Of a stretch of 64,000 nt of DNA, positions 49,451 to 62,637 are shown one piece after another (position 1 is the stretch's first letter; each line of letters opens with the position of its first letter). The translations under genes were made by a program, and so were the position numbers. The DNA lies in the NCBI GenBank assembly GCA_001662655.1, contig KV460250.1; one strand, 5' to 3'. The notes under the pieces were generated by a model. The model saw nothing but the letters and a program-made list of their open reading frames with translations, was not told the origin of the DNA and made no database searches. This DNA comes from Pseudogymnoascus verrucosus. Lineage: Eukaryota.

Positions 49451-52400
49451 ACATAATACTGTGTCAAGTACTACTCCGACACAATCATGCCGTGAGGGAC
49501 AGACAAGCTTCACGAAACAATAAGCTAGCTATACCTATAGCCTAGGTAGGGCACTCGTACACGCCACGATTCTCTATTCGTATTGCGAGTATTATAGGCC
49601 CTTACTCGTACAATACGATAGTAATCAGAGTACGTTCGGTCGACAGTCACGAGTACTCTACTACTACTACTAGTACTACTACTTACTACCACCACCAATA
49701 CTATAAATGGTAAAATGCACACTCTAAGTGCGTGCAGGACAACAAGGAACGGACGGCGGGCGACGGGGGGTTCCAAGGCGGTTACATACAAATACAATTT
49801 AGACCGAATACATACATTTTAGACGGAAGACCACTCCTCTAGGACTCACTCGAGACTCCACGTTACATACGACGGGCGTGACGGGAGAGCGAGTTAGGAG
49901 ATATGTACCCTACAGTATGTATGTACTGCACGATATGTCACTGCTACCAACACCATTACTGGGAATACTGTCACTCTGATATTCCTACCACTCATTCTGT
50001 CACTCTCTGCCAATACTCCCACTTCTACCACTTCTACCACTCCAACCACTCCAACCACTCCTGCCAATTACTCCCACTACTGTCACTCCTGCCAACTAAC
50101 TCCCACTCGCACGCCCTGCCACTACCATCCATCAGCACTTCCCCAACCACTCGGTCGTGGCTGCTAGTACTAACCAACGGCGGTGGTTGGCGTCGATGGC
50201 CGAGTGGTTGGGTCGATACCTCCCTCCTCGCTGCTGCTGGTTAGCACGACCCCTTCACACCCCACCACCACCCACCACCGCCGTACTAAGTTACCCTCCC
50301 CTCCCCTCCTCTCTTCCCGTCCACTCCCGTCATCCAACATAAGACAACGCCCAGTCCCCCAAACCGGACTCGGAAAAAGAAAACGTCAGACAATCAAGCA
50401 AAAAAAACCGGCTGTGAAAAAATAAATAAAAAAGGAGCGGACCCTGGCAAGAATAAGAAGAAGAAGGAAAAATGTGTTCGAAACACCCGGCGCAACGCAC
50501 AGCTGCATCCGGTCGGTGGTCCTGGCTCGTCTCGTCACATTTTTTTACAATTCGACACACTCAACCCACATACCATCGCCCGATTCAGGAGTTTGATTGA
50601 GAGCGAGGAGCGACTAGGCGGCGACGACCGAAAATTGGCATGCAAGGTAGGTGAGGAGGTAAAGTTGGACACCGCCGTACAGGCGAGACAAGGTCAGCTC
50701 AGCCGGACAGGGCAGGGCAGGGCAGGGCCATTTCGTGCTCTTCCTGTTTGCTGTACTGTGCTCTGTACATACACTTCTGGTGATTCCACCTCGTAAGGTA
50801 AGTTAGGTTAGCTGCTTCTGACAGGTGCTGCCCGAGCCCAACCCAGCCAAGGAAGGCAAACTATTTTTTTAAGACAGGTACGGGGGTAGGGAGGTGGGTA
50901 ACTTGATCTAAGGTTGAGGTTGTGTCTGTCGTCTAAGGTGAGGTTGAGGTTGTCGTCAGGCACGGTGGGGATGAGGCAAGACGACCTAACGGAGATGGAT
51001 GTGAAGGGAGGAGGAAGACCGACCAGCCTCGTTGACGAGTCAACTCAACTCCACCACTCTACTCTCTACTCTCTCTGCAATGCCACGTCTCACACTCACT
51101 CGGCATAGGTTGGAGGATGGGAAGGGCGAGGATGCATTTGATGACTGGCCTATATAGGTTATATGAGTGAGTGAGTGAGTGAGTGAGTGAGTGATACTCG
51201 CATCGCATCGCAGTGACCGGTGGGATGGATGGGCGTCTCGTCAATACATACTACTTCCATACCCACACATACCTACCTCCTACATACATACATACATACA
51301 TAATAACTCGGCGTACTATTTTTTTTTCCCTTTCTCCCTCCTCCAACAGCGACGGTGCAATACATGGATATCTTCCCCAATATCCCCTCCCCTCCCTCCC
51401 AGATCGCCATCCGGGTCTTCCTTCCGCAGCCGTCACCTCCTCCGCCCCTCGCTCGGACTTTATGTCTTATCGCCTCCGCGCTGGCCAACAAGGTGTCGAG
51501 AAGCTGGCACGATAAGGGCGGAGGTAAGTCCGACAGTGATCACCGAGCTCCACTTTCTCGGTCTTTGGTGTTGTTCTTGTCTGTAGGGGATCCGGAGGAG
51601 GACTGGGATTTTTGGGTGTATTTCGTCACTACTGGTGCTACTGGCAGGGAGGTGGAGGAGGTGAGGTGAGGTCGACGCAACGGGTGGGGGAGGAGGTAAT
51701 ATCACGGTCGGTGGGAGAGGACGGTCGGTGGTGTCTATCTATACTGGTGTGTTTGACGCTGTTTGAAGTACATACGACGGTTCAAGTCTGTATATGCTAT
51801 ACTTTACCAACTGTACCATCATCCACCATACACCCACATCCACCACCACCACCACCCGTCAGCATCAGCACAATCCACAATCCACCATACACAAAACTAC
51901 AATACACGCACGCCCAAGACTCCCCAAAAATGACATCCCATCCCATCCCATCCGCTCCTTACGCACGCACAAACGCACATCCTCGCGCCTTCCGGCGAAT
52001 GTACGATGTACTTACTTACTTACTTACTTACATACCTACAAACACACATCCCACCCCATCCCTATCCCCATCCCGTCCGTCTATCCCGTACATACAAATC
52101 CAATACTTATACATACCACACATACCAACTCCCTCCGTCTTCCCCTCCGTCTTCCCCGCCGTCTCCCGTCTCTCCCTCCCCGTGTCACAGTGGCGTCATG
52201 CCTCCTCCCTTCCAGCCAGCCAGGCAGGCCTCTCTCGTCTCATCCGCCTCGTCTTGGCCATAGGAGGGGAAATACGACACAGTACCACAGCAATACAAAA
52301 GGCAACGATGACAGACTCCCTTACCCTACGCATGCAGTTCCCCATCCATCCATTCACTCCGTCACATTCCTCCTCCTACTGCTACCACTACTAATCAATA

Positions 52401-53900
52401 ATCCCCCTCCTCACCCAGCCAAGCCATCCAGCATTCCCATCCGCCTTGCCTCGCCAGGTCCATAAGAAGCCCGCCTGCGCCCGTCGCCCGTAACACCCCT
52501 CCCCCCTCCTCTCCTCCGCTCACAACTCACATACTGTATTCTCCACTCCCCACTCCGCCTCCTCCGTCCGCTCCCTCACGTCGCGAAACCCGCAACCCGC
52601 AACCCGGGCGACGTAACCGCCCCCATCTCTGGTATCGTAACACACGTCACTGAAGGGAGGGGTTGGTGGGTTTGTGATAGGGTCGGTTTGTGATATCGTC
52701 GGTGATACCGTTCGCGCTCGCAGTGGTGGGCATAACAGGTAGCCGTGCCTATCTGTCTGTCTGTCTACTACAGTATAATACCTTTCGCTTCTACAATGGC
52801 TGGGCTGGGCTGAGTCGGTCGGTCTACATAACCCCGCGCGCACGCCCGCCGGCCTGGCCGCCCGCCACCTTCTCCCATGCCCTGCTGCCAACGCGGGACT
52901 ACTACACACACCGCCGACACGGTGTTTGCGCATCCCGTGCGCGGCGCGCGTCACCTGTACGCACCGCACAGCGCCATAGTGGCGAAAAGCCCATGGATAG
53001 GATGGAAAAGCCTGCGTCTCTAATGAGGAACTATTGAATTGAAGCCAAGACGAGGACGTCGGATTGACTCTTTTAAGAGGTAAGTGGGTAGGTAGATAAG
53101 GCAAGGTAAGGTAAGGTATGTTTGCTCCTCTCCGTCCCCTCTCTCTCTTCCCCCCGTCTCGCCCGTCGATCGTCCGTCGATTCCGTATATACATACAGAC
53201 ATACATACATAAACACGCACCAACCAACTAAATACCCATCTACCACCCATCCCCTCGCTGCACCAGACCGACCGGTCGGCTGGGATATCCGCCACACTGC
53301 TTGTACCCGCCACCACCAGCACCGCTGGAAGGAGCGGGTGCTGCTGTGTGTGGTTGGTAGTGAGGGATCGTCGGTAGGTCGGCTGGCGGCGTGCGGTGCG
53401 GGGATGGAGGAGCACGGCGGCGGAATGGGGGGATGGAAATGCATGCTACTCCTCTAGGAGAGAGTAGGTACAACAGTGGGTATTCGCTAGTTAAGTTAGT
53501 AAAGGTTGTGTGTGTGATGGAGGGGAGAGGATGGATGGGGTTTCTTGGGATTGTGGTTGTGTATGTGTGAGCTAGATGGAGTGTGGTGGGTGGGTTGTAT
53601 ATACTATATAAAGCAGAGGCAGTGTCTAGTTCTGTTTGGTCATGAGGAGGATTGCTAGATATATACGTGTCGTGCTGTGTATACTAAGAGAAGGAGATTC
53701 TAAAGGAACGAGCGATATCTCTCACCATTGCTCCTTCCCTCAGGACAAAAGGGAGAGCCACCATTTTATACAACTCCCACACAGCAACGCGACCCAATGC
53801 ACGCCCCCTATTTACTTAAACAGTGATCAGATGGCAAACCCATCCATTCCAGAGATTCAAATAGAACTTGTAAAGTTTCTACTAACACAAAAATAATCTA

Positions 53901-56900
53901 TCAAACAGCCCACCGCTCAACAACCTCAGCAAGCGTATCATCACCCCCAACGTTCCCAGGAAACACAATATACGGCACCCCCTTATGCCTCGACGTCTCC
54001 TCCTCGCATCTCCAGATCGGGACGCCCAGCGCTGCTTGCCCGAGGATCATGGCGCGCTTCATATTGAGGCCTTTTGTTGCTGCGTCGGAGGAGGTGATGC
54101 CGCCCTGTTTGTTCGGGTTAGTAAATTTGAAAGCTCTGTAATCGGAGAAATATGGTGGGATGGGGATAGGAAAGGGGGAGTTGAGCTTACCTTGGCGATC
54201 ACATATCGCGGCCGGACTGTGATATTCTCCAAAACCTTTACTAACGCAGCAGCGACGACCCCACCGATTTTTAGACTCGAAATCGCGTCTGAGCCGGTGA
54301 CGAGACGCCGCGAGGTCATGACTAGAACATCCTGCCCCTCTCCTAGTTTGACACTAGCTTCCTGGAATGCGTTTGACACCACCTCCTCCGCCTTCGGTCC
54401 CTCCCCAACCAGCGTCCCAACATCCAGCTCAATGACATGGAGTTTCCCCCCTCTCCGCTCCCTCAACGACGCAAGCTGCGCTGTAGTCTTAGGGACGTAG
54501 GAGCCGGCGATGACGAGCCCGCCCGTAGTAGCGACGCCGGAGTGGTACCCCATATCCAGCTCCTCAGCCGACATGGGTGCTTTTCCAGCTATCCCGAGGC
54601 GCGAGGAGACGAACGCCGCGCCGGTGCGGTAGAGATACCTCTTTCCCTGCTGCTCAGCGCTGATTGCTCCAGCTGCGAAGACGGCCATATCCGACTCCGC
54701 CGCCGCGTTGACGACGACCACGCTCCCCCTCGGTATCTGGAGTAAGCGCTCCGCTACCTTCTCGGGGCCACCGAGGCGGATGTCGGAGAGGGTTATGGAG
54801 AAGATGTCCTTTGGGTTGAATCTTGCGCCGGATTTCTCGATGATGTAGTCCCGGAGGCTGGAGGATGCGTATCCGAATGTCGCGTCTTGTGCAAAGGGGG
54901 TCTGGCTGGCGGGGACTAGGACCTCCTTCTCGGCGACGTAGTGCACGTCGTCGATCGTGTATCTGCCGCCCTGGTAGAAAAAGGGTGCGAGGATCCAGGC
55001 ATCTACCTCTCCAAGCACCTCCTCCGCGCTCTCGAGCTCCTCGAGGAAGTGCCCGCGGAGTGTAGAGTCCCCGCGGAGAACAATCTGGAAGGTCTTGTTC
55101 GTCTCTGCAGCGGCTTTGGCTAGGTTTTGGCAGATCTCGGAGATGAGGATCTCGGCTTCGGGACCGGGGAGGGCGCGCGAGTTGGTGAGGATGAAGAAAC
55201 CGCCCTTTGCTGATTGGAGTTCTTTGCAGAGGGTGCTGTGGTCCCAGACGGTGAGGACGGCGATGTCGTGGCAGGTTTGGGTGCCGGTTGGGTCGTCGTC
55301 GAGGGCTATGACGAGGGGGGTTGAGGGGTTGTCCACTTGGGATCGGATGGTGGAGAGGATGTCGTCTGCTCCTCCTGCTGCTGGGGGGAGGGAGGCGAGT
55401 GTCTCTTTGAGGGGGAGGGGAGAGTATTCCCTGGGTTTGTGAGTGGGAGCAGCAGGTGTCTTTGCGCTAGAGGAGACCGAGACACCGGTCATGAGTTCCC
55501 ATACTCGGACGACGCCGCCGTCGGCGTCTTTGGACCAGCCGTGGGATTCCCCCATGAGGTAGAGTTGGTGGGCTGCGGCGGTGAGGGGGGAGGCGTATGT
55601 TAATCTCTTTGCTTCATCGAGGACGATTCCCTGATTATTTAGTTAGTTTATAATCTAACTCATATGTATTTATGGGGGGACGACTTACCAAATCCTTCAC
55701 AAAAATAGCAAGTTGACTATGAGGCGTCCAATCCGCATTGAGCATAGCAGGAACGCGATTCTCAAACATCCAGCTCCCGCCAGCGGCATTCTTGATGATC
55801 TCGTACAGATTAGCTGTATCCAAGCCCAGTTTGGCTCCGAATGCCATGGCCTCTGCTGCTGCTGCGATGTGCACTCCGGCGAGGAGTTGGTTAATCAGCT
55901 TTACCGACGATGCGGCGCCGACACCTTCACTGATTCGATGGAGGTTCGTTGCTTGGCCGCTCATGGCTGTGAGGATTGGACGGGCTTTGGAGAGGGCTAG
56001 CTCGTTTCCGGAGGATATGATCTAGAACATTTTTAGTTGGTGGTGATTGATGGATCTGGTTTGGGGTCCAATTTACCGTAAGTTCACCCTTTGCCGCCCT
56101 CGCTACCCCGCCACTGACTGGGGCGTCGATTAACTCTAGTCCCTTTCCTAAACTCGATAGCTGTGTTGAGAGATCCCTGACAGCCGTTGGAGATACGGTA
56201 GAGTTCAGTATAACAATCGATCCCTCAGGAAGTGACTTGGCGGCAGCCCCAGCTCCAAACAAAACATCCCCGGCTTGGGCAGCATTTTGGACCATGAGGA
56301 CTAGTACCTCTGCCTCCCTAGCTGCTTCAGCTGGCGATGTAGCTGCTATTGCTTTGCCACCGCCGGCAACAAACTTCTGAATCGATGGCTCGTAAACGTC
56401 GTACCCCCAAACGTTGAATCCTGCCTTCACGAGGGAGGTTGCCATTCCGACACCCATTGCGCCTAGGCCAACGAATCCCACTTTGGATATCTCGAAGGGG
56501 GTCGCTGACGGAGTGAGCACGTCGGGTTGAAGAGTTGCTAACTTTGAGCTCTCGTGCACTAATGTGGGCGTTGACGGCGTGAAAATACGTACGATCCCCG
56601 AGTCATCCTCGCGCCCGAAGCCCTGGGATGAAGCAGAAAGGTAGAGTTGTTCTGCCACCGAGGAGAGCGGGACTGGGAAACCGTGTGACCGTGCGGAGGA
56701 GGTGACGATGCCCTACATTTATTCAATTTAGACTGTGGAAATTAGAATAGACGATGAGGGGATGTAACTCACCATGTCTTTGACGAAGATATCCAATGCT
56801 GAGTATGGGGTTAGATCATTGTCTAGCATATGCGGTACTCTGTTCTCGAACATCCAACTGCTCCCAGCTGCGGTCAGGATTATATCGTATACTTGTCGCG

Positions 56901-57576
56901 TGTTCAATCCGGCTTTCGCGGCGAGGCCCATCGCTTCGCCGGCCGCGGCGATGTGGATTCCGGCGAGGAGTTGATTGACCATCTTCACATTGCTCGCAGT
57001 GCCGATTCCACCGGGTATAATGTATAATTTTTCTGAAAGGAGCTTGAGTACTTCGTGGCCTTGTTGTAATGCTGATTCTGTACCGGCTGCTAGGATTGTG
57101 AGTTTTCCTTGCGAGGCTCGGACGGTTCCTCCAGAGACAGGGCTGTCGATTAGATGGATATCTGATCGGTCCATATAATCTAGCTTCTGTTGAACGGATT
57201 TTAAGAATGTTGCTGGTACTGTCGAGCATAATATGACTGTTGAGTTTGTGGGCAGTGCTACATTATGTTACAATTTGGCCCAGTCTTCCCATGGATGCAT
57301 GCTCATACCTTGGACAGCTCCATTCGCCGAATCGAACAATACTGATTCAGCTTGCTGTGAGTTTGTGACCATGCAGATTAAATATTGATTTCCCCTCGCA
57401 GCCTCTTTAGGAGACGATGACACCCCTCCTCCAACTGCCCTGAATTTCTCCAGGGAGGGTTCGTAGACATCGTAGCCAGTTACATTATGGCCCTCTGAGA
57501 CTAGATGAGATGCCATTCCAAGCCCCATTGCACCTAGCCCAGCAAAGGCAATGTTAAGGGCGCTACTTGACGCCAT
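53901..57576 (-). CDS. Fusion protein: two tandem beta-hydroxyacid (3-hydroxyisobutyrate/L-threonate-type) dehydrogenase modules plus a DUF1537 four-carbon acid-sugar kinase, 1121 aa
   Basis: Module 1: GLGAMG, DSPVSGG, VKMVNQLL, FENRVP, FVKDMGIV. Module 2: GLGAMG, DAPVSGG, VKLINQLL, FENRVP, FVKDLGIV. Kinase: LDDDPTGTQ, RGDSTLRGH, GGRYT, AKGGITSSD, FPGNVG. Five canonical introns (57258-57308, 56713-56772, 56022-56076, 55631-55688, 54105-54190) leave 3366 nt in one frame. Confidence 0.92.
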
Positions 57577-57838
57577 GATCGTGTGGTGTGTGTAAGTAAT
57601 TGTGTGTTGATAATACAAGCACGACGATGGTCGAGGTTATAATGAAGGCTGTATGTAAGTGAACTTGAACATAGAACAGGGTATAAGAAAGGACTTGAGA
57701 GGAAGAAAACAGAAAGAAGAAAATATATTTAAATATACTAACCATGCACAACCTCCGTAAAGTACAGTACCATTCCTTGGGAGGTTTTTCTTAACTTTAC
57801 TAATAAAACGTTAAAGTTGAGGTTGTTATCGTCAATCT

Positions 57839-58035
57839 CGGTGTTCCCTCCGCGATGGTGGCAGTTGGCAGGAACGAACGCTTAGTCAGCATCAGCTAGC
57901 CCCGCAGTGTACCCCGCAGTGTGGCCAAATTGCGGACTTCATCCCGAGAACCATCAACCAACAAGTTTGCTTTCTCGTGCATCTTCTCCATCCATTTTGT
58001 GTTTGCCTTGCTAACGTACATCGGCCTATCCACCG
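57839..58035. promoter_or_regulatory. Three CGG-N8-CCG elements (putative Zn2Cys6 dimer sites) in the divergent promoter
   Basis: CGGTGTTCCCTCCG 57839-57852; CGGACTTCATCCCG 57933-57946; CGGCCTATCCACCG 58022-58035. Confidence 0.65.
57900..57922. promoter_or_regulatory. Tandem putative CreA/Cre1 sites (11-bp direct repeat)
   Basis: CCCCGCAGTGT at 57900-57910 and 57912-57922; the reverse complement GCGGGG fits SYGGRG. Confidence 0.45.
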
Positions 58036-58166
58036 CGAAACAAAAGAGGCCTTGATTCGACCTGCAGGACACCCGGCATCATCGAGCCTAAGAAAATCGC
58101 CCTAAACGCGATAGTGGTATGGCTTTGGAATCGGAGATAACAGGCTAGAAGCGTCCACGCTCTAAG

Positions 58167-60480
58167 ATGGACAGCATCTCTCCATCTTCAGTAGCCCATT
58201 TGGGCGCCAGCATCCATAGTAGCGATGGGTCGTCTCGTGTGCCGAAGATATCGAGAAAGGTTCACGCGTGTACAGAGTGCCAAGCTCGAAAGATCAAATG
58301 CGATGTTAATCCACCACAGCGTTCCATATGCACTCGCTGTTCTAAGAAGCGGGTTCGCTGTGTAGTTAATAAGAGTCTACAGTCTCTTATAGGCGAGGAT
58401 ACAGAGTACGTCATGTAACGTTTTCTTTATTACTTTGTTAAGGAGATGTGGGGGGGATTCTTTTCAAGGCTATTTCGATATAGTCTTATCATCGTTTAAT
58501 TTCATGTCATGTTATATGGAGTAGGAACGTCTTGAATATGATAGCATTCAATCATATATTTCTTGAGTTTAGAGAGTCAGTCTAGTTAATTTATCTTCAT
58601 ATATTAATTATATATAATGCTCGGCTTACTGACAATACAATTTGATTAGATGGAAGACCACTATGGAAGAAAACAGTCAGACTCTGTCTCTCGCAGTGTC
58701 CAAGATCTTAAGCGTGTTAGAGCTTCCCTCTCTAGAATCATTTGCAGCGCAGCTACAACACAACCAGCTACAGCACAGCCAGCCACAGGCGCAACAAGCT
58801 GTCACCAGAAGTATCGAGGCTCCTGATAGGTCGAGACCCTTCCGAACATCAGGCATGGCCATGACGCGCGAGAATTCGCAAGAGCCGACCCAAAGCAGAG
58901 CAGATACTCTTGTCACTGACCCTATGGGAGCTTTGTATGAAGTAACCAAACTGAGAAATCTCCGGAGCAACAACCTCCATGGGCATGCTTACGCTGCCAG
59001 GCCAACAATTTTAGAGGACGATTTTATCTCCAAGGGCAAAGTTAGCGAAGCTGATGCTGAAGAATTGTTTCGAACCTTCAGTACTTCTCTCAATCATTAC
59101 CTGTGGGGTGGTATTGGTCTCGTCCATGACAACCTTACTTCTGTGCGACGGTCCTCAACTCTATTGCTAGCAGCCATTTTCACAGTTACAGCACTACACG
59201 TACCCGGGAAAGAGCAGGTCTTTGATATCTGTTATGCCGAATTCACGGCACTTGTTTGCGATTCCATGTTTGACCGATATCACACGTTGGACGGTATTCG
59301 AGCTCTTTGCATTGGCGCGTTCTGGCTTTCAGACGTTAGTTGTATGGAGCCCCATAGCCAAGAGGACTTTGTCAGATTCGAATGCTAACTATACACCACA
59401 GGGAAGCTTGCCGGCCACGCAGTTAGAATAGCGACAGAGTTAAATCTGCATCAGAGCTATTCTCGAGCGATGCGAGGCTCACGGGAGCATTTCGAGGGTG
59501 CGAGGCTGTGGTACTTTATATACGTTTGCGATCACCACTTCAGTATCGCCTACGGTCGACCGCCTGTTATTCACGAAGATGCGACGATTACAAACCATGA
59601 GAAATTTTTGAACCTGCCAGGAATCACACAAGCTGACTACCGCCTGCACAGCCAGGTTTCCGTATTCATTATCCTAACAAGAGTTTACAATACCTTTGGG
59701 CCAGATATTGAGCAAGTGGTCGCTGAGGGAGATTTGATACTCTTACGTCAATTCAACCACGCGCTTGATAGTTGGCGATTGCACTGGGAGTCCCGACTCA
59801 CCCCTAACCCTTTCATCGCAACGTACCCTGCAAAGGGAGTCGTTCTGCACTATCACTTTGCAAGGCTGCAAGTGAGCTCACTGTCCTTGCGTGGGATTCA
59901 GAAAGACGGCATGCACGACTTGACCATAGATCGGCGAGACCTAGCGAATACCGCCATTGCCTGTGCTACTTCCATCCTCCAGACTGTCCTGGATGAACCC
60001 GGCATCCGGAACTCCGTCGTCGGTGTGCCAATCTACCTCCACACTATGATAGCGTACTCTGCGGTCTTCCTCCTGAAAGTGCAGCAGAAGTGGAAGGCGT
60101 ATAATCTTAGCGCCGATGCTACTCTAATCCGAGATCTTGTGATGAGAATCATACGGCTTTTGCTCGATGCCAGAGCAGGTGAACGGCATTTATCAAGTCA
60201 TATCGCTACCGGCTTGAGTAAAATGTTGGACCGTTTCACATCATGGGAGGCAGGAGAGAAATCGAGGAATCTCCTTGTGGATTCGGGACGAATAAGCCAA
60301 GATGATCCAAACAATCCGGCAGCGCAGATGTGGGAACCAAACTATGCGATTTCTGACACTGGAATTCTTCGCATGTTCGATTCTTCAGTGCCGTTCTACG
60401 ATGAGCATTATTTCCCCTTGGGCTTTTTCGATGTAATGTCTGCTGGCCAGACGGATACCGAGTATCGACATCGGGAATAA
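58167..60480 (+). CDS. Zn(II)2Cys6 transcription factor with fungal middle-homology region, ~669 aa
   Basis: ACTECQARKIKCDVNPPQRSICTRCSKKRVRC, plus AVRIATELNLH and RLWYFIYVCDHHFSIAYGRP. Introns 58406-58649 and 59342-59401. Confidence 0.94.
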
Positions 60481-60734
60481 ATGGACGAACGTGAGACTCA
60501 CGAGGAGCTCTTGGAAGTCAACAGTGGAACGCCACAAATTAGAGGAAGCAACACTTCCTCGACTATTAATCTCCATGGAGATTTAAATCTTGTAGAATAA
60601 GTAATAATGTTACATGTACCGAGGTCCTACCTAGATCCCAATTCCAACTGACTGGACCCGCAAACCAATGCTCTGGGCTCTTTGACATCACATCAGCTTG
60701 ATTGGCCCCTCGCAGTTCTGTCCGTGGCGGAGTG

Positions 60735-60748
60735 CGGTGTTCTGTCCG
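60735..60748. promoter_or_regulatory. CGG-N8-CCG element upstream of the MFS permease
   Basis: CGGTGTTCTGTCCG, 12/14 identical to the element at 57839. Confidence 0.65.
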
Positions 60749-61032
60749 AGATCCCAATGTCCCCCTGTTGGCATTTTGATTTAGTGTCAGCGCCATTCCA
60801 CTAAAACGCGGGGAAAGCACCAAGAGTGGGTCATATATCCCCCCGTCAAATACTTACCCCAGGGCTAGACTCCGCATTACTTTCCCGCCCCAACTGCCGC
60901 CATGAATAGATAAAGACGAGACAACGTCTACTTTTTGAACATTCATTGAAGAGGTCAATCTCGTCATGACAGCATCTTTACCCTTTTTGAAATATTAATA
61001 CTACACACACTTCGATTTTAAACAATTTCGCA

Positions 61033-62637
61033 ATGGAGGAGTCGAAGGACAACGCCCTTCATGTCGAGATGACAACTACCATTACCAAGGGAGATGGCGC
61101 GACGGAGGAGGAGATCCAGTTGCAAGAAGCTCTGAGCAATTATATTCCAGACACCGACGCGGAGAAGAAGCTTGTACGGAAAATCGACATGCACTTAATG
61201 CCAACTCTCTGGGTTATGTACATTCTCAACTATGTTGATCGAACAAATATTGTAGGTAACATTGTTGCTTTGCTTTTTGGTACACTAAGCTAACATATTT
61301 GGTAGGGGAACGCAAGAATTGCTGGAATGGAGGACGACCTGAATCTTGATGCCCAGAGTCAGTATTTTCACTTCATCAGTTGCCTCTAAAACATACTGAC
61401 GCGTGTAATAGAATACGCATGGGTTCTCTCCATCTTCTTCTTTGGTTACCTCATCATGGAAGTGCCGTCCAACATGATTCTCAGTCGAAGCCGTCCCTCA
61501 ATATTTCTTCCTTCCATCATGCTAGTATGGGGAGCAATGAGTGCCATCATGGCCTGCGCTCCGAACTACGGATCCATGCTCGCCTTCAGATTCATCCTCG
61601 GCTGCATCGAGTCTGGCTTCTTCCCCGGCGTGCTTTTCGTCATGAGCTGCTGGTACAAGGCAGCAGAGATTGGAAAACGATTTGCCATATTCTACAGTGC
61701 TGCTGTCCTATCAGGGGCGTTCGGTGGCCTTCTAGCTGGCGGTATCACCAACGGTCTCCACGACGCGCACGGTATTGCCGGGTGGAGATGGCTTTTCATC
61801 ATTGAAGGCGTCGCAACAGTCGGAGTAGCCATCATCGCAAAGTTCATCCTCCTCGACTTCCCTCACAGCTCCCCAGTACTCACCCTCGAAGAGCGCCAAC
61901 TAGCCACCGTTCGAATCATTGCAGACAGCGCGGTATCAGGCTCCGCATCCGGCTCATCTAGAGACGACCGACTTTCCCACTGGGAAGCCTTCAAGGCAGC
62001 CGCCACCGACCCACGCACATACTCTTTCATGCTCCTCTTCGTCCTCGACGTCGGCGCCGGCACAATCTCATATTTCATCCCCACCATCACCAAGTCATTG
62101 GGCTACGACACCGTCAAAGCGCAGTACATGACTGTCCCCGTGTACGCCGTCGCCACAGTCTGCCTCAACATCTGCGCCTTCTCCGCCGATCGCCACGAGG
62201 AGCGAAGATGGCACATCACAGCCGCTCTCTCCCTAGGATTCATCTGTGCCATGGTCTGCGCCATCGTCGAGACACCCGTAGTCCGCTACGTCATGCTCTG
62301 CTTCGTCGCCTCTGGGATCTGGAGTGCGCTCCCTCTCATCCTCGCATGGGCATCCAAGACCATTGATCTTCCGGCCGAGAAGCGCGCTATTGCGATCGCG
62401 ATGATCAACGCTGTTGGTAATCTGTCGTCTGTGTATGGGAGCCAGATCTGGCCTACTAAGAGCGCTCCGCATTATACTCTGGGCTGGGGTATAACGGCTG
62501 GATTCCTGGGTGCGGGTGCTTGTGTGGCTGCTCTGATGCCAGTGTTTATTAAGTTCGTCCCGAATAAACCGACTAAGGCGGAACTTGCGTTGAAGGAGAG
62601 GGGTGAGAGGATGATGGCTGAGGCTGCCGCTTTGTAA
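61033..62637 (+). CDS. MFS anion:cation symporter family permease (Dal5/Tna1-like), ~498 aa
   Basis: Motifs EKKLVRKID, NYVDRTNI|GNARIAG, EVPSNM, ESGFFPG, AFGGLLA, GWRWLFIIEG and KRAIAIAMINAVGN. Introns 61252-61305 and 61358-61411. Confidence 0.93.

Follow-up and report, generated by a model that had tools for sequence, protein, structure and literature searches.

A conserved CGG-N8-CCG motif associated with a Zn2Cys6 regulator family and a putative sugar-acid cluster in Pseudogymnoascus verrucosus

A window of 64,000 nucleotides from contig KV460250.1 of Pseudogymnoascus verrucosus (assembly GCA_001662655.1; "the window" means this whole stretch of analyzed DNA) holds three neighboring genes, which encode a modular enzyme, a Zn2Cys6 transcription factor (TF), and a permease. 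Their promoters contain four CGG-N8-CCG elements, that is, inverted CGG pairs 8 bp apart. Orthologous promoters that cannot be aligned with one another retain both the motif and its spacing, the motif is associated with the genes of the TF family, and the four elements are almost certainly real control sites. We consider it likely that a pathway-specific Zn2Cys6 activator, encoded by the adjacent TF gene, acts through these inverted CGG pairs at a spacing of N8 in a small catabolic regulon. A preliminary description of this DNA had reported the four matches, and all of their coordinates and sequences are correct:

57839-57852, N8 site 1, CGGTGTTCCCTCCG; 263 bp to the enzyme ATG, site end 315 bp ahead of the TF ATG
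57933-57946, N8 site 2, CGGACTTCATCCCG
58022-58035, N8 site 3, CGGCCTATCCACCG; site end 132 bp ahead of the TF ATG
60735-60748, N8 site 4, CGGTGTTCTGTCCG; site end 285 bp ahead of the permease ATG
60711-60724, degenerate copy of site 4, CGCAGTTCTGTCCG; 24 bp upstream of site 4, 12 of 14 bases matching, with CGC instead of CGG

Sites 1 to 3 lie in the divergent spacer between the enzyme and TF genes, which extends over 590 bp from 57577 to 58166 (enzyme ATG at 57576 on the minus strand, TF ATG at 58167). This spacer contains 5 CGG and 7 CCG triplets, which form three CGG/CCG pairs, all of them N8; no inverted CGG/CCG pair at another spacing was found in it over the scanned range of 0 to 20.

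Metagenome contigs were scanned with an alignment of the TF C-terminal exon, giving 68 loci (numbered here with the prefix L), onto which the window exons were then mapped. The order of enzyme, TF, and permease is kept in L003 and L004 (duplicates), L006, and L008, and the enzyme/TF pair is kept also in L005 and L024; L030 and L035 have a single divergent HIBADH-like gene beside the TF, and L009 and L048 have the TF followed by the permease. The locus set covers several classes, since the nearest named relatives include Rhynchosporium (80%, L003), Penicillium (90%, L011), and Verruconis (78%, L041) and the identity of the TF segments to the window is 47 to 67% (48% in L035, 55% in L005 and L008, and 67% in L030). 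The orthologous divergent promoters are unalignable, with a mean column identity of 39%, and motif counting therefore replaced alignment-based phylogenetic footprinting.

Eight divergent promoters (window, L003, L005, L006, L008, L024, L030, and L035), 4,506 bp in total, contain 23 N8 sites, 2 or 3 in each, compared to a mean of 0.87 and a maximum of 8 over 2,000 dinucleotide shuffles. Other inverted spacings from 0 to 20 occur 0 to 2 times each in the same promoters, except for N13 with 5 pairs, which come from a further CCG after the site, and neither everted nor direct CGG arrangements show a peak across the eight. On the permease side, the TF-to-permease spacers of 6 loci have 10 N8 sites in 4,681 bp versus 0.90 expected (2 each in L003, L006, and L008, 3 in L009, and 0 in L048), and a TF-proximal N8 site is present in every syntenic locus. 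Conservation in orthologous promoters had been set beforehand as a refutation test of the proposed site, and the motif withstood it on both sides of the TF gene. An unbiased comparison of all 1,344 inverted combinations of triplet and spacing in 13 non-redundant regions placed CGG-N8-CCG first, with 30 sites in 12 of the 13 regions; the runner-up, GCG-N10-CGC (9 regions), is CGG-N8-CCG plus one flanking base on each side. A similar density elsewhere, a further refutation test, was not observed: outside TF neighborhoods, sequence not covered by long open reading frames (ORFs) had 0.176 sites per kb (22 in 124,852 bp) and ORF-covered sequence had 0.255 per kb (42 in 164,579 bp). The form of site 1, CGG[T/C][G/A]TTC, recurs in the divergent promoters of L003, L005, L006, L008, and L024, and forms related to site 2 (CGGTCATC...) occur in L003, L005, and L019.

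The motif also accompanies related TF genes outside this cluster. In the 700 bp upstream of the zinc-cluster exon at 21 non-syntenic related-TF loci, N8 is the commonest spacing, with 18 sites in 13,876 bp and at least one site in 12 of the 21 loci. A paralogous TF (38 to 39% identical) belongs to another conserved cluster (L038, 2500-10300; L044, 3200-11300), whose genes encode a sugar transporter, the TF, a type I phosphodiesterase, an HD-domain protein, and a PhyH-type dioxygenase. The divergent promoter between the HD and PhyH genes has 2 N8 sites in L038 and 2 in L044; the dioxygenase and HD pair is reminiscent of the bacterial PhnY*/PhnZ phosphonate route. The N8 sites upstream of related TF genes tie the motif to the TF family and are compatible with autoregulation. 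The preliminary description had called the motif the cognate site of the adjacent TF, including autoregulation. What stands of this is a conserved motif that tracks the TF family genes, whereas binding by the adjacent TF is inferred by association, and homodimer binding, the direction of regulation, and the inducer are likewise inferred.

In the mechanism that we propose, the four elements would be the upstream activating sites (UASs) of a small catabolic regulon, and the TF encoded between the two promoters would bind as a homodimer to the inverted CGG pairs, with each zinc cluster contacting one CGG and the 8-bp spacing set by an invariant segment after the zinc cluster. The three sites of the 590-bp promoter would drive the two divergent genes, that of the enzyme and, by autoregulation, that of the TF itself, and site 4 upstream of the permease would couple uptake with catabolism. 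GCGGGG (CreA-type) elements would add glucose repression, and the inducer would probably be L-threonate or a related four-carbon acid sugar. The putative regulator is encoded as follows:

58167-60480, plus strand, Zn2Cys6 TF gene; inferred coding sequence 58167-58405, 58650-59341, and 59402-60480 (669 codons)

Its GT..AG introns preserve the frame, as read from the sequence. Exon 1 (58167-58405) carries the zinc cluster (Pfam Zn_clus PF00172, E value of 6.2e-08) and joins exon 2 at 58650 in frame over an unusually long, AT-rich GT..AG intron of 244 nt; a Fungal_trans match is weak (E value of 0.00046, 19.8 bits, under the 23-bit curated cutoff). In L014, L036, L041, L046, and L047, a single reading frame spans the second half of the zinc cluster and the segment that follows, and this contiguity in five orthologues assigns the DNA-binding exon to the TF gene. 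In public orthologue models (P0001, P0002, P0003, P0014, P0015, and others), the coding sequence starts from an internal Met (ME[E/K]N...) and the Zn2Cys6 exon is missing; the conserved internal Met that opens exon 2 may leave room for a second product without the DNA-binding domain. A hypothetical protein of Pseudogymnoascus sp. 03VT05 matches the C-terminal exon with 95% identity, and the nearest relative found in A. nidulans is AN2763.2, with 48% identity over 78% of this exon. Searches with the C-terminal exon and the DNA-binding fragment returned matches that are all hypothetical or generically named, none of them a characterized relative with a known site.

From the last Cys of the zinc cluster to a conserved Trp, the five orthologues, the window, and the paralogue in L038 all have 15 residues. 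A monomer model predicts, with moderate confidence, a helix over fragment residues 34 to 65, right after the zinc cluster (mean predicted local distance difference test score [pLDDT], 69). Together, the invariant segment and the predicted helix would fit a fixed half-site spacing. The nearest solved DNA-binding domain by sequence is that of Leu3 (E value of 5e-05), which binds everted repeats, and the spacing is therefore not readable from homology.

Half-sites are shared between promoters. Wherever a genome has both promoters (four genomes), one enzyme-side and one permease-side site carry an identical 8-mer half, namely, CGGTGTTC in the window (sites 1 and 4) and in L003 and CGGCATTC in L006 and L008; L006 and L008 are related, so that this sharing amounts to about two independent lineages. 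Among 42 sites, T is rare at the fifth position, and the recurrent form is CGG[T/C/G][G/A]TTC. Contigs of close relatives span the promoters, and the within-site change among the differences listed is 57848 C>T, in the spacer of site 1. A diverged contig aligned within the divergent promoter solely at 57834-57857 (24 letters), around site 1, and another contig aligned solely at 60697-60836, around site 4; the aligned stretches are short, and both are hints only. Positions 60711-60748 of the window form a direct repeat of GTTCTGTCCG spaced by 24 bp, the upstream copy being the decayed site 4. N7 variants with a spacer flavor like that of the N8 sites occur in L003 (5634, CGGACTTCTCCCG, related to site 2) and in L048 (2011 and 2027, CGGTAGTTCTCCG and CGGTCTTCATCCG); these are either decayed sites or a sign that the protein accepts a spacer shorter by one base.

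Several observations weigh against action of the adjacent TF through a strict N8 code. Site positions differ between species, and the loci of the groups L030/L035, L041/L046, and L006/L008 are too closely related to be independent. The spacing is not absolute: the TF-to-permease spacer of L048 contains N6 and N7 pairs in place of N8, L003 has the N7 counterpart of site 2, and N7 is second commonest (11 pairs) upstream of related TF genes. At 9 of the 21 non-syntenic loci, the TF gene lacks an upstream N8 site. The spacer is weakly informative, with only position 6 standing out (A or T in 38 of the 42 sites). Single CGG-N8-CCG matches in a genome-wide scan would be swamped by the background of 0.18 to 0.26 per kb, and hence only site clusters would be informative. 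Nor does the core CGG-N8-CCG by itself identify the binder, as ClrB is reported to use the same core. Finally, clustering judged from the window alone is just a ~2% event: three sites inside 200 bp appeared in 10 of 500 dinucleotide shuffles. The earlier argument that three sites are unlikely by chance thus holds for the local triplet, and the window alone provides modest evidence. Its underlying expectation of ~0.14 per 590 bp was fair, the window shuffles yielding 0.16. The near-identical pair, also put forward earlier, is not significant within the window, where a pair at least 12/14 identical arose in 363 of the 500 shuffles, and it gains weight only via the 8-mer halves matching in four genomes.

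Could the four sites then be functionless, a short GC-rich pattern clustered by chance? Over its full length the window shows no enrichment, its 14 CGG-N8-CCG matches lying below the shuffle mean of 17.51 per 64 kb (14 or more in 76 of 100 shuffles), and four sites inside 3 kb were as common as 223 in 500 dinucleotide shuffles. Against this stand the excess in the eight orthologous promoters, unreached in any of the 2,000 shuffles, the first rank among 1,344 patterns, and the low density outside TF neighborhoods, and the promoter identity of 39% rules out that the metagenome loci are near-copies. Chance is excluded for practical purposes, and we give it a negligible probability. A more serious alternative, though still an unlikely one, accepts the sites as real and conserved and has another Zn2Cys6 protein bind them, either of ClrB/ManR type or encoded elsewhere, with the adjacent TF recognizing something else. 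A. nidulans ClrB (ManR) is reported to bind CGGN8CCG, loss of either triplet abolishing binding (PMC13267753, PMC8313289); the ClrB/ManR site of A. nidulans and A. niger thus has a core identical to that of the cluster sites, inverted CGG triplets 8 bp apart bound by a Zn2Cys6 activator. The Zn2Cys6 protein BcSpd1 of B. cinerea reportedly shifted a fragment containing CGGN8CCG. However, ClrB/ManR targets cellulases and mannanases, and the motif tracks the TF family genes instead, being found upstream of related TFs with other neighbors and in the paralogue's unrelated cluster, whereas control sequence adjoining none of these TFs has background density only. The cluster genes, a dehydrogenase/kinase fusion, a TF, and an acid-sugar-type permease, have no link to plant cell-wall degradation. 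The adjacent TF and ClrB presumably represent different loci.

It is improbable, in our estimate, that the adjacent TF pairs with a second Zn2Cys6 protein to bind as a heterodimer or that it binds asymmetrically, with most of the specificity in one half-site. The spacer asymmetry could be read in this way, with biased bases beside one CGG (CGG-N-not T-A/T-T-C) and 31 of the 42 sites in the same orientation relative to the TF gene, as could orphan, half-site-like CCCCGCAG repeats between sites 1 and 2. Yet the conserved cluster contains no second Zn2Cys6 gene, fitting the orientation of 42 short sites may overfit, and the orphan repeats fit a CreA-type consensus too.

Under the favored reading, with the adjacent TF as activator, the system resembles the UASs of yeast Gal4, Put3, and Ppr1, whose inverted CGG spacings are N11, N10, and N6, respectively. 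The resemblance extends to a pathway-specific Zn2Cys6 regulator, several inverted CGG pairs of fixed spacing, a small catabolic gene set, and a divergent promoter common to two genes; the difference is the spacing of 8. Three features of a Zn2Cys6 inverted-repeat UAS were found, namely, inverted CGG triplets at fixed spacing, conservation above background (with the exception of L048), and a regulator with a binuclear cluster. CLR-2 of N. crassa and M. thermophila is reported with N11, not N8. Direct CCG-N7-CCG repeats of the AcuK/AcuM type were ruled out, with 0 direct N7 pairs in the divergent promoters. The AmyR site, CGGN8CGG, has the same 8-base spacing and a Zn2Cys6 activator of a catabolic regulon (motif from PMC8313289), but its triplets form a direct repeat, whereas the eight divergent promoters have 0 direct N8 pairs versus 23 inverted ones.

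The genes on either side of the TF suggest what the regulon would do:

53901-57576, minus strand, enzyme gene with introns (from Pfam, NCBIfam, and ORFs)
61033-62637, plus strand, MFS permease of the anion:cation symporter type; introns inferred at ~61252-61305 and ~61358-61411 (from frame and GT..AG only)

The enzyme is composed of two tandem HIBADH-type dehydrogenases (NAD_binding_2/NAD_binding_11) followed by a DUF1537 four-carbon acid-sugar kinase (SBD_N plus NBD_C; PF07005, E value of 4.7e-52; PF17042, E value of 1.7e-15). Among NCBIfam models, both dehydrogenase modules match NF043037 (L-threonate dehydrogenase) best; the exon fragments of module 1 (65.7 and 197.1 bits) and of module 2 (177 and 28.2 bits) all score below the 350-bit cutoff. 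The permease matches Pfam MFS_1 and NCBIfam TIGR00893, the D-galactonate transporter subfamily (E value of 5.2e-53). Judging from these domain matches, the three-gene cluster probably breaks down a sugar acid. The module order of the enzyme is that of the first three parts of Arabidopsis LTD (AT1G18270), LtnD1-LtnD2-OtnK, as given in PMC12540250. Compared to bacterial LtnD/OtnK/OtnC and plant LTD, the fungal gene stops after the kinase, without an F_bP_aldolase or Aldolase_II (OtnC) module. Neither an OtnC-type decarboxylase (class II aldolase fold) nor the OtnI isomerase of the four-step route was found in the enzyme gene or among the 69 ORFs of at least 140 aa at window positions 1-53900. 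Because the enzyme has no aldolase-type decarboxylase module and no such gene was found elsewhere in the window, the last step of the presumed pathway must, if it is encoded at all, sit at an unlinked site. An aldo/keto reductase gene adjoins the cluster in L005 (8658-9614), L006 (55-639), and L024 (8527-9228) and replaces the permease in L005 and L024, and in these fungi its product may also belong to the pathway.

More broadly, we tentatively entertain the possibility, which we hold to be well short of probable, that an uncharacterized regulator family across several filamentous ascomycete classes, often misannotated without its zinc-cluster exon, uses one CGG-N8-CCG code set by the invariant 15-residue Cys-to-Trp segment. 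It would control its own gene and small catabolic clusters, including a fungal counterpart of the plant and bacterial pathway for L-threonate, an ascorbate breakdown product, and the PhyH-type dioxygenase/HD hydrolase/phosphodiesterase cluster. If this is true, the motif would be a direct handle on the unlinked missing steps of fungal L-threonate use. That pathway-specific Zn2Cys6 factors act on inverted CGG repeats is textbook knowledge, and the advance is a well-supported new case, not a new mechanism. This case connects an uncharacterized regulator with a defined and conserved DNA code and with genes through which soil and plant-associated fungi can probably utilize a four-carbon sugar acid, e.g., L-threonate from vitamin C breakdown. 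An uncharacterized fungal regulon thereby becomes directly testable, and public orthologue models are flagged as omitting the DNA-binding exon. Literature searches returned nothing on fungal regulation of these genes, with reports on DUF1537 in fungi judged by titles and the starts of abstracts, no fungal report on threonate dehydrogenase as judged by title, nothing joining threonate with Zn2Cys6, and nothing under the exact motif name CGG-N8-CCG; for AN2763, the only fungal mention was an unrelated A. niger esterase unigene.

A second type of element lies between sites 1 and 2:

57900-57910 and 57912-57922, two tandem CCCCGCAGTGT repeats with a 12-bp period

Their reverse complement contains GCGGGG, which matches SYGGRG, presumably the CreA/Mig1-type consensus. 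Of 12 orthologous promoter regions, 10 contain CCCCGC (GCGGGG on the complementary strand) versus a null mean of 3.08, an enrichment that arises partly from overlap with the right halves of N8 sites, and 5 contain CCCCGCAG versus a null mean of 0.21. On this evidence, the CreA-type elements probably confer glucose repression on top of the cluster control.

Beyond the 3' end of the enzyme gene, ~4 kb of the window (50000-53900) has overlapping open frames on both strands that are rich in Pro, Thr, His, and Ser and have no Pfam match, and this region looks like simple or degenerate sequence rather than genes.

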